Source of the DNA: an uncultured Gemmatimonadaceae bacterium
Lineage (GTDB): Bacteria; Gemmatimonadota; Gemmatimonadetes; Gemmatimonadales; Gemmatimonadaceae
Direction of reading: 5' to 3'
Assembly: GCA_963751275.1 (NCBI GenBank)
Contig: CAVVTZ010000009.1
Location: 96,001 to 160,000, forward strand
Length of the DNA stretch: 64,000 nucleotides
In this document: positions 12,728 through 17,913 of the stretch, in pieces
Numbering within the stretch: position 1 is the stretch's first letter
Layout of the letters: each line of letters starts with the position of its first letter
The notes under the pieces: model-generated
Told to the model about the DNA's origin: nothing
Seen by the model: the letters and a program-made list of their open reading frames with translations, nothing else
Databases searched by the model: none
Made by a program: the position numbers and the translations under genes

Positions 12728-12918
12728 GCACCCCGAACTCCGTCCTTCGTCCCCCGAACTCCGCCATTGGCGATTGACGTGTGGTACCAGCTACGGCGTT
12801 GCTGGCATGGTGTAAACGCCATGCCAAGTACGTTTGAGCCGTTGCCACACCTTAGTGGCCAATAGCGGAGTTCGGGGGCCAACAACGTTGTTCGGGGTTC
12901 GACTAACGTTGTTCGGAC
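12728..12918. repeat. Inverted-repeat element, family A-related
   Basis: ccccgaactccgccattggc / gccaatagcggagttcgggg arms; central hairpin tggcatgg...ccatgcca. Confidence 0.75.
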
Positions 12919-12926
12919 CGCGCCCG

Positions 12927-13187
12927 CTACCTCTTATTCTTCTCCGCCACGGAGCGCTCAAGATCTCGCACCAGCGCAATGATCCGGCGCACGATGTCGA
13001 TCATGCGGTCCACCGCCGCGCCCTGCTCGGGGCCCAGCCCCGGCTCGGTGCGCAACAGCTGCGCCTCGGCGAGGAGCGCGGCCAACGGATTGTTGAGTTG
13101 ATGCTGCACGAGCGCCGTCAGCCGTTGCAATTCCGGCGACGAGAGCGGCTCCTGCTCTTTGGACGATGACTCTTTCGGCGGCGTCAC
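12927..13187 (-). CDS. Stand-alone HisKA (DHp) domain protein, about 86 aa
   Basis: H-box VQHQLNNPLAALL; strong RBS gaggggagg before GTG 13187. Confidence 0.7.
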   Translation of the reverse strand: MTPPKESSSKEQEPLSSPELQRLTALVQHQLNNPLAALLAEAQLLRTEPGLGPEQGAAVDRMIDIVRRIIALVRDLERSVAEKNKR

Positions 13188-13232
13188 GCGCGGTGCCTCC
13201 CCTCGGGTCTCTACTATATCTTCAGGACACTC

Positions 13233-13832
13233 ATGGGTTCCCCTAAGATACCGGGTGGCACCGCCGCCGAGCTCGCGAGCGCCGTGGAGAGCTATCGCGA
13301 GACGAACGATTTCTCCGTGCTCCTCGACCGGCTGCTCGCCATCTCGGTGGCCGCCGATCTCGAAGAACTGATCGCCGCCGTCGAGCCATACCGGACGATC
13401 CCGGAGATCGCCGGCCCGGTGTACGAGCGCGTGGTGGCGGAGCGTCCGCACGATGCCCGCGCGCTCGTGACGCTCGCCAACTCGTACTGGCTGAGCGGCC
13501 GCGGCGCCGAGGCCACCGGCGAACTCGCGCAGCGCGCGATGGCCGCCGACCCGGAGAATCGTGCGGCGTGGCATCTCTGGGCGCTCACCGAACCCGAGCC
13601 GCGCGCGCGCATGACGCGATGGAAGCAGGTGAGCGAGCGCTTTCCGGCCGACGACCTCGCGCGCGCGACGCTCGCCGACGCCGCCGCGAGCGTGGCCGGC
13701 GCCGAGCGGGACCGCGAGGCGCTGCAGCTGGCGATCCGGAGCTACGACGCACTGCTCAAGACGGCGGCTCTCCCGGAGCAGAAGGCCGCCCTTGAGAGTG
13801 CGCTAACTACGTTGCGCGCCTGGAATCTCTGA
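13233..13832 (+). CDS. TPR-like helical hypothetical protein
   Basis: ARALVTLANSYWLSGR...AMAADPEN TPR-like repeat. Confidence 0.7.
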   Translation: MGSPKIPGGTAAELASAVESYRETNDFSVLLDRLLAISVAADLEELIAAVEPYRTIPEIAGPVYERVVAERPHDARALVTLANSYWLSGRGAEATGELAQRAMAADPENRAAWHLWALTEPEPRARMTRWKQVSERFPADDLARATLADAAASVAGAERDREALQLAIRSYDALLKTAALPEQKAALESALTTLRAWNL

Positions 13833-13884: not shown

Positions 13885-14709
13885 TCAATGGAAATGAAAC
13901 ATGAACGGCATCTCCACCCATTGTGCCACCGGGCAACCGTTGGACATTGCCGGCGTCCACCGGTACTGCGCGACCGCGGCGATCACGGCGTCAACGTATT
14001 CCTTGTGCTTCCCTTCCACGGCGCGCACGCTGTCCATCACGGGGCGGCCATCGCGGCCCACCAGCACCTGCACGATCACGTCGTCCTCGACGCGCGCGTC
14101 CTCCAGCTTCTTCGGCCACTTCGGGTAGATGTTCGTGGGGATGAGGTGCGCGGAGCGGTCGATCGTGTTGAGCGGCCGCAGCGCCATCAGTTTCTGCGGA
14201 TAGAATCCGAGCGACGGATCGAGCGACAGCTGGATGCGCATCTGCAGGGTGTCGCGGCCGTCGGTGGAGAAGAAGCTCACCTTGTCGACGCCCATTTGTT
14301 CCGCGGCGTTGATCAGCGCCGAATCCATGCGCGCGTCGGCGGTGGTGAGTTTGAGATGGATCTTGTCCACGCGGCCGTCCGCGCTCTGCGTGAAGCGCAC
14401 TTGGCCCAGCATCGGCATGAACGTGTTCGCGCCGCTCGCGCGCAGCTTCACCATCGTCGCCGCGGCCGCCTGCATGGAACTGAGATCCATCGGCTGGATG
14501 AACCGCGCGACGTACTCCTGCAGCAGCGACCCTCGCAGCCGCCGCAGCTCCGCGCTCTCGGAACTATCCTGCGGTATCGAAGCGAACACGGTGAGGATCG
14601 GGCTGATCCCGTGTGAAGCGGGATCCGTGGCGCACTGCGCGCCCGGCGACTGCGCGGGAACGGAGACCAGAAGGCAGCTGAGAATCTGGACTCGCGCCGC
14701 CATTCTCAT
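13885..14709 (-). CDS. Secreted protein with TonB C-terminal domain
   Basis: Signal peptide; YPKWP...VQVLVGRDG...WTPAMSNGCPV...PFMF. Start uncertain. Confidence 0.7.
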   Translation of the reverse strand: MRMAARVQILSCLLVSVPAQSPGAQCATDPASHGISPILTVFASIPQDSSESAELRRLRGSLLQEYVARFIQPMDLSSMQAAAATMVKLRASGANTFMPMLGQVRFTQSADGRVDKIHLKLTTADARMDSALINAAEQMGVDKVSFFSTDGRDTLQMRIQLSLDPSLGFYPQKLMALRPLNTIDRSAHLIPTNIYPKWPKKLEDARVEDDVIVQVLVGRDGRPVMDSVRAVEGKHKEYVDAVIAAVAQYRWTPAMSNGCPVAQWVEMPFMFHFH

Positions 14710-14765
14710 TCGCACCCTCCGAACCGTTGGCGACAGCCGTCAGCCGTCAGTCTGCCGTTAGGCTC

Positions 14766-15167: not shown

Positions 15168-15948
15168 CCCTCTCTCCCTGACGGCGCATCATCGCCGTTA
15201 ACACTTCCATGAACCGCTCGGGCGGCAACCGCTCCCGAAGGGTCGACGGGGAAAGTCCCGTCGTCGCCCGCACCTGCCGCGAGAAGACCCGCGGCGAGGC
15301 GTACCCCAGCTTCTTCGTGATGTCCTCCAGCAGGTACCCTTTCTCTCCCAGATAGTGGTACGCCTGCGCGAGCCGCGCGGTGAAGATCAGCACTCTCGCC
15401 GAGGCGAGTCCCCGCTTCACCAGCCACCGGTCCAAGTTGCGGCGCGTCATGCCCGCGGCGTGCGCGAGCGATTCGACGCCCTGGATCAGGTGCGGCGCTT
15501 CGTACATCCGCGCGAGCGCCCGTTGCAGCAGCGGCATCGCGCCTTCCAACCGGTCGTTGATCGACGCCAGCGCCGCTCCGCCAAGCCGGTGCGCCGGCAG
15601 CCGCTCGAGCATCTCCTTCAAGCGGCGCGGTTCATCGTCGAAGCCGCGCAACACCACGTGCCGCACGCCGCGCTGCGCGAGCGATACGGTGGTCCTCAAC
15701 GTCTCCGCCGCGAGCGAGGTGTAGACCACCACCGGCAGCGTCGGATACCGCTCCATCAATTCGAACACCGGCTCGATCTCGGTGCTGCCATCGACCCGCG
15801 GGTCGATCACGAGCACATCGACGGGTTGCTTCCGCACGACGGAGATGAGTTCGGTCCAGCCGGTGACACCGGTCAGACCGTGCTCATCGCCCAGCACGCG
15901 GCGCAAATAGGCGAGGACGGGAGGAGGGAGGCGGGCGGCGACTTCCAA
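15148..15948 (-). CDS. AraC/XylS-family regulator with degenerate receiver-like N-domain
   Basis: C-terminal double HTH: LAHAAGMTRRNLDR...LEDITKKLGYASPRVFSRQVRATTGLSP; N-terminal DVLVID / VVVYTS. Confidence 0.85.
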   Translation of the reverse strand: MEVAARLPPPVLAYLRRVLGDEHGLTGVTGWTELISVVRKQPVDVLVIDPRVDGSTEIEPVFELMERYPTLPVVVYTSLAAETLRTTVSLAQRGVRHVVLRGFDDEPRRLKEMLERLPAHRLGGAALASINDRLEGAMPLLQRALARMYEAPHLIQGVESLAHAAGMTRRNLDRWLVKRGLASARVLIFTARLAQAYHYLGEKGYLLEDITKKLGYASPRVFSRQVRATTGLSPSTLRERLPPERFMEVLTAMMRRQGERDDEAVQ

Positions 15949-15964
15949 GGGGGGACACTAAGGT

Positions 15965-16029
15965 TGTCCTAAAAACGCACCTTACTGTCCGAAAATGCTC
16001 GTCTGCCCCGAAGAACGCTACGGTAGCTT
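15965..16029 (+). promoter_or_regulatory. Putative activator-dependent promoter: TGTCC direct repeats 21 bp apart plus -10-like TAGCTT
   Basis: TGTCCTAAAA at 15965, TGTCCGAAAA at 15986, TAGCTT at 16024; same geometry as 17517-17581. Confidence 0.6.
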
Positions 16030-16074
16030 TGCCTGCGAGTGGAACCGCCGTCCCAACTCCCACGCGAGGCTACC

Positions 16075-16206
16075 ATGATCCGTCGCCTGTTCGCCCTACT
16101 CGTTCTCGTCGCCGCCGCCTCTGCCGCCACGGCGTGCACTTCGCCCACCGCCCCGAAGGCCGACTGCGCCGTCACCGGCGGCAGCGGGAACTGCGCCAGC
16201 CGCTAG
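16075..16206 (+). CDS. 43-aa lipoprotein-signal peptide precursor
   Basis: GAGG RBS; MIRRLFALLVLVAAASAATA|CTSPTAPKADCAVTGGSGNCASR; followed by a terminator hairpin. Confidence 0.8.
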   Translation: MIRRLFALLVLVAAASAATACTSPTAPKADCAVTGGSGNCASR

Positions 16207-16226
16207 TTCGCGGCTGACTTTCACGC

Positions 16227-16260
16227 CGAAGGGCCGCGGGCGCCAACCCGCGGCCCTTCG
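16227..16260. terminator. Perfect 14-bp hairpin between convergent peptide and TPR genes
   Basis: cgaagggccgcggg-cgccaa-cccgcggcccttcg. Confidence 0.75.
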
Positions 16261-16267
16261 TGCATCG

Positions 16268-17509
16268 CTACACCTTGATGCCGGCGAGCTCGCGGATCTT
16301 CCGCACGCCCGCCGCCGCTTCTTCCACCATCGGCGTCGTCGCGGCCGGAACGGCCCCCTCGATGGCGATGCCGTCCTTCAAGTCTCCCAGCGCCTGCTCC
16401 GCGTGGAAGACCACCTGGCTCGATTGATGCTGGTGCGCGATCTCGAGCGCGCGCTCCAGTGCCACGCGCGCCTGCTCCGGCCGGTCGAACATCCGGAAGC
16501 CCTGCCCTGAATAGAAGAAGTACCAGGCCGAGAGCACCGGAGGCAGCGCGGCCGTGGAGAGCTCGCGGCGATACTGCTCGAACACCGGCTCGAAGTGATC
16601 CGCGCCGGCGAGCTCCATGAGGTTGATCGTCGCCTGCCAGCGCGTGAACTGCTCCTGCGCCGTGGCCGCGAGCACGAGGTTCGCGTCGCGCGCCGCGGTG
16701 TGCAGCCCGATCTCGAAGAAGCTGGCGGCGAGGTCGGCGAGCACTCGGTCGCGCGAATTGTCGGTGCGCACATCCTGCAGCGCGAGATACTGCATGGCGA
16801 TCGCCGCATCGTAGTCGCCGCGGCGGTGCGCGGTGTGCGCGCGGTCCTGCAGCGCCATCGCGCGGAGCTCCGTCATCCCGAGCTGCTCGGCGTCCAGGAT
16901 CGTCTGGTCGAGGATCGATTCCGCCTCAGGCAGATTGCCACGATCGGTGAGCACGTTCGCCTCGCCGATGCGCGCCTTGAGCATGCTCATGATGTCGCCC
17001 GTGAGCGCGGCGACTTCGCCGGCGCTGCCATACGCGTCCCACGCGTCGTCCCAGCGCGCGAGCGTGCGCGAGCAGGCGGCGATCATGAGGTTCGCGTTGA
17101 TCACGGTGTCCGCGTCGTTGAGCGGGTGGGCGTGCGCGAGCACCGTGCGGTACACATCGGTCGCGAGCGCCCATTCGCCATCCAGCTGCAGCGCGCGCGC
17201 GTACGCCATGAGGCGCGGCGTGACGAAGCGGACACTCGCGAAGGCGCCGGAGGGATCCATCGCCTCGAGGACCTTCAAGAGGAGCGCGCGGCTCGTGCTC
17301 CCATGGTCCATCGCTTCGACCGCTTCGCGCACCGCGCGCATCCCCCACGCATCGGGCGCCGCGACGTGCGGCCCTTCCATGACCCAGGCATCGACGAGTC
17401 GCAGCGTGACGAGTCCCGCGCTCATCGCGCGGAAGGTGGGGCTGCCCGCTTCGAGGTGGGAGATGCGCTCGAAGTACGGGAGATGAGAGAGCGAGGGGCC
17501 GGTGGTCAT
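16268..17509 (-). CDS. Cytoplasmic TPR-like protein, about 413 aa
   Basis: Helical repeats: GEANVLTDRGNLPEAESIL, DRAHTAHRRGDYDAAIA, QARVALERALEIA; no signal peptide or evident HTH. Confidence 0.8.
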   Translation of the reverse strand: MTTGPSLSHLPYFERISHLEAGSPTFRAMSAGLVTLRLVDAWVMEGPHVAAPDAWGMRAVREAVEAMDHGSTSRALLLKVLEAMDPSGAFASVRFVTPRLMAYARALQLDGEWALATDVYRTVLAHAHPLNDADTVINANLMIAACSRTLARWDDAWDAYGSAGEVAALTGDIMSMLKARIGEANVLTDRGNLPEAESILDQTILDAEQLGMTELRAMALQDRAHTAHRRGDYDAAIAMQYLALQDVRTDNSRDRVLADLAASFFEIGLHTAARDANLVLAATAQEQFTRWQATINLMELAGADHFEPVFEQYRRELSTAALPPVLSAWYFFYSGQGFRMFDRPEQARVALERALEIAHQHQSSQVVFHAEQALGDLKDGIAIEGAVPAATTPMVEEAAAGVRKIRELAGIKV

Positions 17510-17516
17510 GGCGCGC

Positions 17517-17581
17517 AAGTTCAGTCCGCGCGAAATGGGCTTCAAGCGTGAATCAGGACAATCAGCGGACGAATTAGGACA
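17517..17581 (-). promoter_or_regulatory. Putative promoter of the TPR gene with TGTCC direct repeats 21 bp apart
   Basis: Sense strand TGTCCTAATT (17581), TGTCCTGATT (17560), TTGAAG-N17-GAACTT. Confidence 0.6.
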
Positions 17582-17603
17582 TTCTTAACTGCCGAACTGC
17601 GAC

Positions 17604-17902
17604 AGTGGCCACCCGAACGCCGTCATTGGTCACCCGAACGCCATGAGGCGTGAGGCGTGCGTCGAACTGACTGTGAGGCGTGACACGAAGCCCGAAGGCC
17701 GTGAGGCGAACCCCGAATCACGTACGTGGCGCCCCAAACTCCGTACGTCGTGAGTGTACTCACGGACTTCGGGGTGCGAGTCACGGCCTTCGGGTCGCGA
17801 CTCGCGGAGTTAGGGATTCGAGTCACGCCCCACAATCAGTTCGGCGCACGCCTCACGCCTCACGGCGTTCGGGGTACCAATGACGGAGTTTGGGTCGCTA
17901 CT
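17604..17902. repeat. Long imperfect palindrome, family A copy 2
   Basis: Shares tgaggcgtgaggcgtgcgtcgaac and a central cgtgagtgtactcacg with 1389-1717. Confidence 0.85.
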
Positions 17903-17913
17903 CTCGCCCCTTC

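Follow-up and report, generated by a model that had tools for sequence, protein, structure and literature searches.

The subject here is a compact gene module in a 64,000-nucleotide stretch of DNA, referred to as the window, from an uncultured Gemmatimonadaceae bacterium (assembly GCA_963751275.1, contig CAVVTZ010000009.1, positions 96,001 to 160,000 of the forward strand). The module encodes an AraC-type regulator with a receiver-like N-terminal domain, a canonical single-domain receiver, a small exported lipopeptide, and a cytoplasmic tetratricopeptide repeat (TPR) protein. Two copies of one operator lie within it, one in front of the lipopeptide gene and one in front of the TPR gene, and sequence comparison indicates that the adjacent regulator probably binds both and switches the two genes on together. 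The parts of this statement differ in strength. That the adjacent receiver-like AraC protein (AraC below) regulates both genes together is well supported, since the operator is conserved, co-varies between the two promoters, and tracks both the AraC tree and the AraC recognition helix. The case for AraC as the protein that would bind the repeats is strong, and that for activation as its effect on both promoters is moderate. Autoregulation of AraC is weakly indicated, as is the idea that the TPR protein feeds back on AraC with the lipopeptide acting as a cue.

Each of the two promoters carries a pair of 21-bp direct-repeat units beginning with TGTCC, followed at a fixed distance by a -10-like hexamer (Table 1). 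A sequence-only reading of the window had placed these repeats and hexamers, along with a GGACA-N7-TGTCC palindrome, and all of its coordinates and spacings are borne out by direct reading of the sequence. How often would such pairs arise by chance? The pattern TGTCC-N16-TGTCC matches twice in the window against a mean of 0.09 in 100 dinucleotide shuffles, none of which reached two matches, while single TGTCC words show no enrichment (86 found versus 105 expected). A 21-bp period is also that of the AraC I1-I2 and XylS sites. In the family alignment, a weak -35-like TTTACn or TTGnnn falls at the 3' end of the proximal unit, and a scan of positions 15800-17700 against the sigma-70 consensus found no promoter and no terminator. 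Weak -35- and -10-like elements in the absence of a consensus sigma-70 promoter fit activator-dependent promoters.

Table 1. Features of the module and its operators, numbered from the first letter of the window
Feature	Position	Strand	Description
Canonical single-domain receiver, 133 amino acids	14766-15167	-	Pfam Response_reg, E=1.3e-17, 64.4 bits
Regulator (AraC), 266 amino acids	15148-15948	-	Receiver-like (beta-alpha)5 N-terminal domain and AraC-type double helix-turn-helix; TTG start 16 nt from distal repeat
GGACA-N7-TGTCC palindrome	15953-15969		Present in window
Distal 21-bp repeat unit, peptide promoter	15965-15985	+	TGTCCTAAAA core and weak second box
Proximal 21-bp repeat unit, peptide promoter	15986-16006	+	TGTCCGAAAA starts at 15986; 3' end at would-be -35 hexamer position
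-10-like hexamer TAGCTT, peptide promoter	16024-16029	+	38 nt after start of proximal unit (15986)
Small exported protein precursor, 43 amino acids	16075-16206	+	MxRR n-region, hydrophobic core, lipobox-like ..TAC, then CTSPTAP and a C-x8-C loop
Perfect 13-bp G+C-rich hairpin, 6-nt loop	16228-16259		Between the convergent peptide and TPR genes; no T-run
Cytoplasmic TPR protein, 413 amino acids	16268-17509	-	No signal peptide; N-terminal helical region, about 9 TPR pairs, C-terminal helix; Pfam TPR_12
-10-like hexamer GAACTT, TPR promoter	17517-17522	-	38 nt after 17560; 7 nt upstream of ATG
Proximal 21-bp repeat unit, TPR promoter	17540-17560	-	TGTCCTGATT...CTTG, starts at 17560
Distal 21-bp repeat unit, TPR promoter	17561-17581	-	TGTCCTAATT starts at 17581

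The sequence-only reading implied that the motif would recur in orthologous loci, and it does: both promoters share the operator, its position is kept, and its sequence co-varies across lineages. A total of 110 related loci were collected, of which 100 are unique, and anchoring on the proximal unit gave 74 peptide promoters and 46 TPR promoters. The peptide promoter consensus (n=74) is TGTCctAAAA.tGCACat / TGtC..AAAATG.gCgTTTaC, then ..CGCgACCcTA.CTT, with the TA.CTT element at offset 38 in 59/74 loci and at offset 39 in 7/74. That of the TPR promoter (n=46) is TGTCctAAAatg / TGTCctAAAa..gt.cTTG, then cAa.TT, the last element falling at offset 39 in 30/46 loci and at offset 38 in 4/46. Within each 21-bp unit, then, a 5' box is followed by an A-rich spacer and, about one helical turn on, by a second box, a layout that a single AraC-type monomer would read through its two recognition helices.

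What changes between lineages is the core of the unit, which reads TGTCC in some, TGGCAC in others, and elsewhere TGTCAC, TGTCAT or TGTCAG, TGATAnGAAA, or, in a second family, TGYCGC. In 48/57 loci, the 5-mer cores seen at the peptide promoter recur as a pair with 20-22 bp spacing at the TPR promoter, compared with 169/2136 cross-locus pairs having disjoint cores and 101/2850 in shuffled sequence. Core classes form clusters on a tree of 79 AraC proteins, with 14 changes versus 38.6 when shuffled. Core class also goes with the residues of recognition helix 1: TGTCY cores are paired with RRxLDRW, TGGCR and TGTCA cores with RRTxYR, and YGYCG cores with RRTCERW. Among the four AraC alignment columns that carry most information, two (D173 and W175) sit in this helix. 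The sequence-only reading had the adjacent AraC co-activating both genes; the shared, co-varying operator and its agreement with the AraC tree and helix uphold the regulator's identity, while the positive sign of its effect is something we infer.

At the Pm promoter, XylS is reported to occupy a pair of direct repeats, each made up of a box A and a box B, with two recognition helices reading them (PMC5481539). Two 21-bp units with the proximal one at -35 are the arrangement of an activator of the XylS/AraC type, as the sequence-only reading had stated. The following mechanism can then be proposed. The four TGTCC units would make up two operator copies, each a 21-bp direct-repeat pair whose proximal unit reaches the -35 of a weak promoter. 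Two regulator subunits would bind head-to-tail, each touching a TGTCC box and, about one helical turn off, a second box, and this class-II position would recruit RNA polymerase to both promoters. The lipopeptide and the cytoplasmic TPR protein would be turned on jointly, and the operon for the regulator (AraC and the canonical receiver) would be controlled from the same site.

How far does the regulon extend? The window genome is a 3.1-Mb assembly of 14 contigs with 68% G+C and an estimated completeness of 83%. The loose pattern TGTCC-N16-TGTCC has 17 matches in it, with spacings in multiples of 3 over-represented genome-wide, and the 15 matches outside the two promoters lie in G+C-rich, coding-looking sequence (judged by eye, unannotated). 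The genome was also scanned for pairs of units with a position-weight matrix built from related sites, using a cut-off of 14 bits. Three matches exceeded it: the peptide promoter (38.4 bits), the TPR promoter (27.7 bits), and a third site of 14.9 bits with a spacing of 22, which lies outside the window at G000:C11:123446 on the plus strand. Defining the regulon by a genome-wide scan, an idea of the sequence-only reading, therefore leads back to the starting point, as the only strong paired sites in the assembly are the peptide and TPR promoters. Within the genus, the extended pattern TGTCCKRAWW-N11-TGTCCKRAWW occurs exactly twice per genome, at both orthologous promoters, in four of five genomes, and the boxes of the fifth differ slightly from it; a reversed control pattern had no matches in the genomes of the genus that were scanned. 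The regulon thus appears, on these scans, to be confined to the module locus in the window genome, which would make the module a closed, self-referential circuit.

Several observations weigh against joint activation by AraC from a shared operator. A site overlapping the -35 could repress rather than activate. In the window genome, conservation of the second box is poor in each unit. By the pair criterion used, no match was found at the TPR promoter in 9/57 loci, mostly the more distant ones, and the repeats on the TPR side are hard to make out in the second family. The repeat units and the small open reading frames (ORFs) were selected by self-written heuristics, and the AraC tree is a quick maximum-likelihood one in which 30/76 branches are unresolved. 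The loci are kin, so both the co-variation and the tree-clustering statistics overstate independence. Finally, an assembly that is 83% complete leaves room for a further, missed site. Even so, several distinct core switches have hit both promoters and the AraC protein together, despite this kinship.

A separate question is the control of the regulator's own operon, which is read divergently from the lipopeptide gene. The receiver gene overlaps the end of the AraC gene, so the two probably form one operon. In 53/74 loci, 14-17 nt separate the peptide promoter's distal unit from the regulator start codon, which makes control of the AraC-receiver operon from the same site probable. The -10 region of the peptide promoter (16018-16030; family consensus ACCcTAgCTT) is centred on CTAG, so that a TAnnnT hexamer can be read on both strands, and this may mark a back-to-back promoter for the regulator operon. 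The regulator start codon is TTG or GTG in most loci, and no ribosome-binding site is visible upstream of it (15946-15948) in the window genome.

The palindrome was a further candidate operator. The sequence-only reading had it facing the AraC start, and it is indeed present there; among the 74 loci, however, only 4 have the local core's reverse complement in the 25 nt upstream of the distal repeat, and 3 of these belong to the window's own genus. It was accordingly rejected as an araC operator and is probably genus-specific and non-functional, as judged from this distribution.

To describe the regulator briefly, Pfam assigns HTH_18 to residues 161-240 (48.4 bits versus a cut-off of 33.6), while Response_reg scores 21.5 bits, under its cut-off of 30.2. 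The AlphaFold2 model (predicted local distance difference test score, pLDDT, 90) has five beta-alpha units in residues 2-116 and a double helix-turn-helix in the helices of residues 158-254. The protein thus has the C-terminal domain of about 100 amino acids with two helix-turn-helix motifs that marks the AraC/XylS family. Foldseek matched it to the receivers of FixJ, PorX, HupR, NtrX, and FleR, and sequence-profile matches in the PDB include the DNA-binding domains of AdpA, VirS, RamA, SoxS, and MarA. A phospho-acceptor-like Asp49 is kept in at least 90% of 45 AraC orthologues. In the consensus of the same 45, the acidic-pair positions read xVxAxLP and the Lys position reads FDDEP, so the full phospho-acceptor pocket is not there. 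With the acidic pair and Lys missing and a Response_reg score under the cut-off, the N-terminal domain is best described as a degenerate, or pseudo-, receiver. AraC is the sole DNA-binding domain detected in the conserved module.

What does the first of the two target genes encode? In 81/81 loci with a complete interval, a small ORF was found that has a GGAG-type ribosome-binding site and encodes a lipoprotein-type signal; as the ORFs were picked by a regular expression for signal peptide and lipobox, this count asks only whether each locus has one. Among 80 distinct peptides, all 80 have ..[ASTGVI][ASG]C after the hydrophobic core, the pattern of a lipobox, and lipidation is predicted. The motif C..T[AG]P is present in 67/80, and mature parts run from 19 to 43 amino acids, that of the window precursor reading CTSPTAPKADCAVTGGSGNCASR. 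Exactly two further Cys residues (C-x6-10-C near the C terminus) occur in 66/80 and none in 14/80. As these 14 keep the lipobox Cys while having no other, it is not conserved for the sake of a disulfide. The invariant lipobox Cys and the frequent Cys pair together suggest a membrane-tethered, disulfide-closed periplasmic product, and signal peptidase II is encoded in the window genome (55.3 bits). Neither Pfam nor NCBIfam has a family match for the small precursor. The hairpin downstream of the gene is also present in loci L002 and L003 and was not reported by the terminator scan.

The second target, the TPR protein, has a confident AlphaFold2 model (pLDDT 92). Its fold matches include LGN (Z 23-25), NprR, Rap, and phage Rap (Z 20-23), domain III of MalT (Z 20), and subunits of the anaphase-promoting complex. 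Structural alignments with Rap span model residues 23-364, N-terminal helices included. Because LGN, the anaphase-promoting complex, and MalT domain III match as well as Rap and NprR do, the fold is that of a generic long TPR superhelix and is not diagnostic. No Rap or NprR chain occurs among the best 60 of 123 sequence-profile matches in the PDB, a set that does contain LGN, OGT, and kinesin light chain. Pfam gives the protein generic TPR families only, NCBIfam has no family for AraC, the small precursor, or the TPR protein, and the SycD/LcrH model (TIGR02552) scores it at 17.1 bits against a cut-off of 104.8, over one repeat only. Homologues are named "hypothetical" or "TPR repeat protein" and nothing else, and matches in the ESM Atlas are confined to Gemmatimonadota TPR clusters named "hypothetical." In the window's genus, the start codon lies 7 nt after the -10-like hexamer, implying a leaderless mRNA. 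In most other lineages, 83-102 nt separate the beginning of the proximal unit from the TPR start codon, implying a leader; in the examples read, a ribosome-binding site is present.

Not all parts of the locus diverge at the same rate. Across 39 close pairs of loci (AraC identity of at least 80%; the pairs are not independent), mean identity falls from 0.911 for the receiver through 0.888 for AraC, 0.878 for a neighbouring deacetylase, 0.861 for the signal peptide, and 0.775 for the TPR protein to 0.715 for the peptide tail. Variability of the TPR protein is concentrated in residues 201-260 and 321-413. The identities of TPR protein and tail are weakly correlated in these non-independent pairs (Spearman 0.33; partial 0.38 given AraC). 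The TPR protein and the peptide tail are thus, by identity, the fastest-diverging parts of the locus, although the bearing of this on a signal-receptor relationship is only suggestive.

What purpose might joint expression of these two genes serve? It is possible, if doubtful, that no cell-cell signal is involved. The lipopeptide would then be an envelope or surface lipoprotein made as the output of the circuit, the TPR protein a sensor of an internal cue that acts on AraC as co-activator or anti-activator, and the receiver a phosphorylation input, with co-regulation of the TPR gene tuning the sensitivity of the regulator. An invariant lipobox Cys, a conserved xxPT[AG]P linker, and a Cys pair would suit a tethered structural product, for which signal peptidase II is at hand; the canonical receiver is predicted to be co-transcribed with AraC in 77 loci; the regulator's Asp49 is widely kept; and pairs of an AraC activator and a TPR partner operate in type III secretion. 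Yet the TPR protein falls outside the family of those secretion chaperones, a hypervariable tail is unexpected in a purely structural lipopeptide, and a regulon limited to the module leaves no other obvious output, which would be unusual for a stress or envelope response. Alternatively, the variable tail may itself be a signal, exported and then sensed by the TPR protein (through re-import or indirectly), which would free or activate AraC and so close a positive feedback like that of Rap-Phr and other RRNPP systems. Such full autoinduction, the logic put forward in the sequence-only reading, is rather doubtful. In its favour, the layout is rap-phr-like, with a TPR protein of about 400 amino acids beside a secreted precursor of about 45 and a single-domain receiver nearby; the fold matches take in Rap, NprR, and phage Rap; the presumed signal and sensor genes share one operator; TPR protein and tail diverge faster than the rest of the locus with weakly correlated identities; there are up to 5 paralogous TPR copies per genome; and one binding protein of the Opp/Dpp type (SBP_bac_5) is encoded in the genome. 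However, the fold match is unspecific, the sequence profiles bring up no Rap or NprR in the set given above, and TPR proteins often evolve fast for no special reason. A lipobox Cys and a Cys pair are also unlike the short linear peptides that RRNPP systems import, and a diderm host would need extra steps for release and re-import. An unlikely extension of the same idea is a split-part pheromone circuit of the RRNPP type in a diderm phylum other than Bacillota, with a disulfide-looped hypervariable lipopeptide as signal, a co-diverging TPR receptor, and a pseudo-receiver-AraC output driving both from a single co-evolving operator, in which paralogues with different cores would serve as insulated "pherotype" channels.

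Other alternatives concern the operator itself. AraC might bind the repeats and yet repress by occluding the -35, or act mainly on the divergent araC promoter, given that the proximal unit covers the -35 position, that the distal unit lies so close to the AraC start in most loci, and that the CTAG-centred -10 gives TAnnnT on both strands. We regard this as quite unlikely, because weak -35- and -10-like elements and the lack of a consensus promoter are typical of activator dependence, and because identical phasing at two unrelated genes, combined with repeats that are direct and not inverted, is the known AraC/XylS activator arrangement. It is very improbable that some other factor (sigma-54 in the TGGCAC lineages, or an unlinked regulator) binds the repeats, or that they reflect gene conversion between duplicated promoters. 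The TGGCAC-N5-TGCA of some lineages does resemble the -24/-12 element of sigma-54. The TGTCC of most lineages nevertheless lacks the GG of the -24 element, and the tandem pairs sit 38 nt upstream of a -10-like element rather than 12 nt from a start, so the sigma-54 reading of the TGGCAC cores was rejected. Against a factor other than AraC, core type follows the tree and the recognition helix of the adjacent AraC. As for conversion, conservation is limited to the core and the second box, and the two promoters have different spacers, which points to selection on contacts instead. Co-activation by the adjacent AraC is the reading that we prefer.

The module can be set beside several known systems. 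XylS/Pm and AraC/araI1-I2 resemble it in having two direct-repeat units of two boxes each, the proximal one at -35, an adjacent regulator gene, and a C-terminal double helix-turn-helix. They differ in that the N-terminal domain of the module's regulator is a degenerate receiver rather than a cupin or a sugar- or benzoate-binding domain, and in that the targets are a micro-lipoprotein and a TPR protein rather than catabolic genes, within a regulon that is apparently self-confined. Receiver and AraC helix-turn-helix come in the same order in the YesN-type and Bacteroidota hybrid two-component regulators, and the PDB profile matches of the module's regulator include the DNA-binding domains of a "hybrid two-component system protein" and a "two-component response regulator." Unlike those regulators, however, the module's receiver domain lacks the N-terminal acidic pair and the Lys and scores under the cut-off, and a separate canonical receiver is co-encoded.

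Three further comparisons involve the TPR protein or the peptide. In type III secretion, AraC activators work with TPR chaperones as co-activators, as in the pairs MxiE-IpgC and InvF-SicA. Here too an AraC-family activator, a TPR partner, and an exported protein come together, and export is coupled to transcription; the module's TPR protein, with 413 amino acids, is nonetheless not of the SycD/LcrH kind, whose chaperones have about 150-170, and its exported protein carries a Sec- or lipoprotein-type signal peptide. Enterococcal sex pheromones are cut from lipoprotein precursors, the signal being the signal peptide of an ordinary lipoprotein. A lipoprotein-type precursor with a known or possible link to peptide signalling is common to both cases, but in the module it is the signal peptide that is conserved and the short mature tail that varies. 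In Rap-Phr systems, Rap acts on Spo0F. The likeness to them and to RRNPP systems at large lies in the cytoplasmic TPR protein of about 400 amino acids beside a precursor gene of about 45, the single-domain receiver nearby, the fold match at Z 20-23, and the fast-diverging tail and TPR protein. The differences are that no family match at the sequence level was seen for the module's TPR protein, that this protein has no recognised DNA-binding domain, that the output regulator is a separate AraC, that a lipobox Cys and in most cases a Cys pair are present in the peptide, and that the host is a diderm of the Gemmatimonadota. The RRNPP_detector paper (PMC10075063) describes such systems for Bacillota and their mobile elements.

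How much of this is new? An AraC-type activator acting on direct repeats is a known kind of system. As far as the literature searches reach, the combination of a pseudo-receiver-AraC, a canonical receiver, a micro-lipopeptide, and a 413-amino-acid TPR protein is new, and so are its restriction to Gemmatimonadota, its closed regulon, and the natural series of operator and recognition-helix variants. No paper describing an AraC/micro-lipopeptide/TPR/receiver module was found among those that the searches listed, relevance being judged in one of them by title and the start of the abstract. A search combining RRNPP with Gemmatimonadetes found nothing, and the papers listed for RRNPP in Gram-negative bacteria dealt with Gram-positive systems only. 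The module proteins have no curated family name in Pfam or NCBIfam. Gemmatimonadota abound in soil but have few members in culture, and we know of no characterised transcription-factor operator in the phylum, although no search was aimed at one. The regulator-operator pair, with natural specificity variants (TGTCC, TGGCAC, TGTCAC, and TGYCGC) matched to changes in a recognition helix, amounts to a ready specificity code for a protein of the AraC family. Should the lipopeptide prove to be a signal, peptide signalling that is genetically encoded and uses cytoplasmic TPR receptors would reach beyond Bacillota.

The module is common within its phylum. TPR homologues were found in 33/61 relatives, and a TPR profile (E<=1e-20) matched in 122/301 sampled genomes of the phylum, comprising 41/69 of the window's family, 72/125 of the second family, and few elsewhere. 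One row of the locus counts, L006, comes from an unpublished genome (G012), and two other unpublished genomes (G102 and G216) enter only the phylum-wide TPR tallies. Gene order is well kept, with AraC in the same place and orientation (order AraC, small ORF, TPR) in 81/85 unique loci with sufficient flank, and the receiver gene follows AraC in the 77 unique loci mentioned above. The titles of the records with related loci name Gemmatimonadaceae or Gemmatimonadota in nearly every case, and one metagenome-assembled genome that carries the module (L054) is titled Gemmatimonas aurantiaca. One record, L080 (CAVXJL010000012.1), is titled "uncultured Actinomycetota bacterium" and carries a typical Gemmatimonadaceae module; its AraC is nested in a Gemmatimonadaceae clade, so a binning or labelling error is probable. 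In L005 (G002:C19:78852-82880), from a 63% complete genome of the window's genus, the TPR and AraC genes are split into several frames with in-frame TGA codons, and these copies are either decaying genes or assembly errors.

Several genomes have 2-5 paralogous TPR copies, 5 being the most that the profile matched in one genome at E<=1e-20, and one genome has two TPR genes in tandem. A set of 20 paralogue loci from 9 genomes (L111-L130), among them L124 at G120:C96:28500-36100, was assembled, together with L018, the first copy in G016. An AraC match lies beside the TPR gene in 18 of the 20. One genome has an identical core in two copies (TGATAGGAAA) and another has differing cores, though the repeat finder is unreliable on divergent copies. 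Fused, longer forms of the protein were not found at E<=0.001, which is weak evidence. Two ORFs of about 610 amino acids in another family have an N-terminal extension with no Pfam match, and a fifth locus examined for longer forms, L135, had no TPR match.

Directly upstream of the TPR operator lies an imperfect palindrome of 309 nt (17599-17907; 146-nt arms, 79% complementary), built of sub-repeats of about 21 nt (CCGAAC..CCGTCATTGG), with a smaller copy at 12751-12878. Its relatives occupy 67 distinct 1-kb places in the genome, which marks it as a dispersed element like repetitive extragenic palindromes or miniature inverted-repeat transposable elements, and as a dispersed repeat it was rejected as part of the operator. 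On the other side of the module, between the receiver gene and a small TPR gene, a gene at 13885-14715 on the minus strand encodes a protein with a TonB C-terminal domain (Pfam). It was found in no other locus by tblastn, many of which are short-flanked on that side. Beyond it, two ORFs on opposite strands, 12927-13574 (minus) and 13233-13832 (plus), overlap by about 340 nt. The former matches HisKA in its C-terminal part only, so its real start is probably further in. The latter encodes a 199-amino-acid protein with a TPR_19 match and is conserved in 45 loci.

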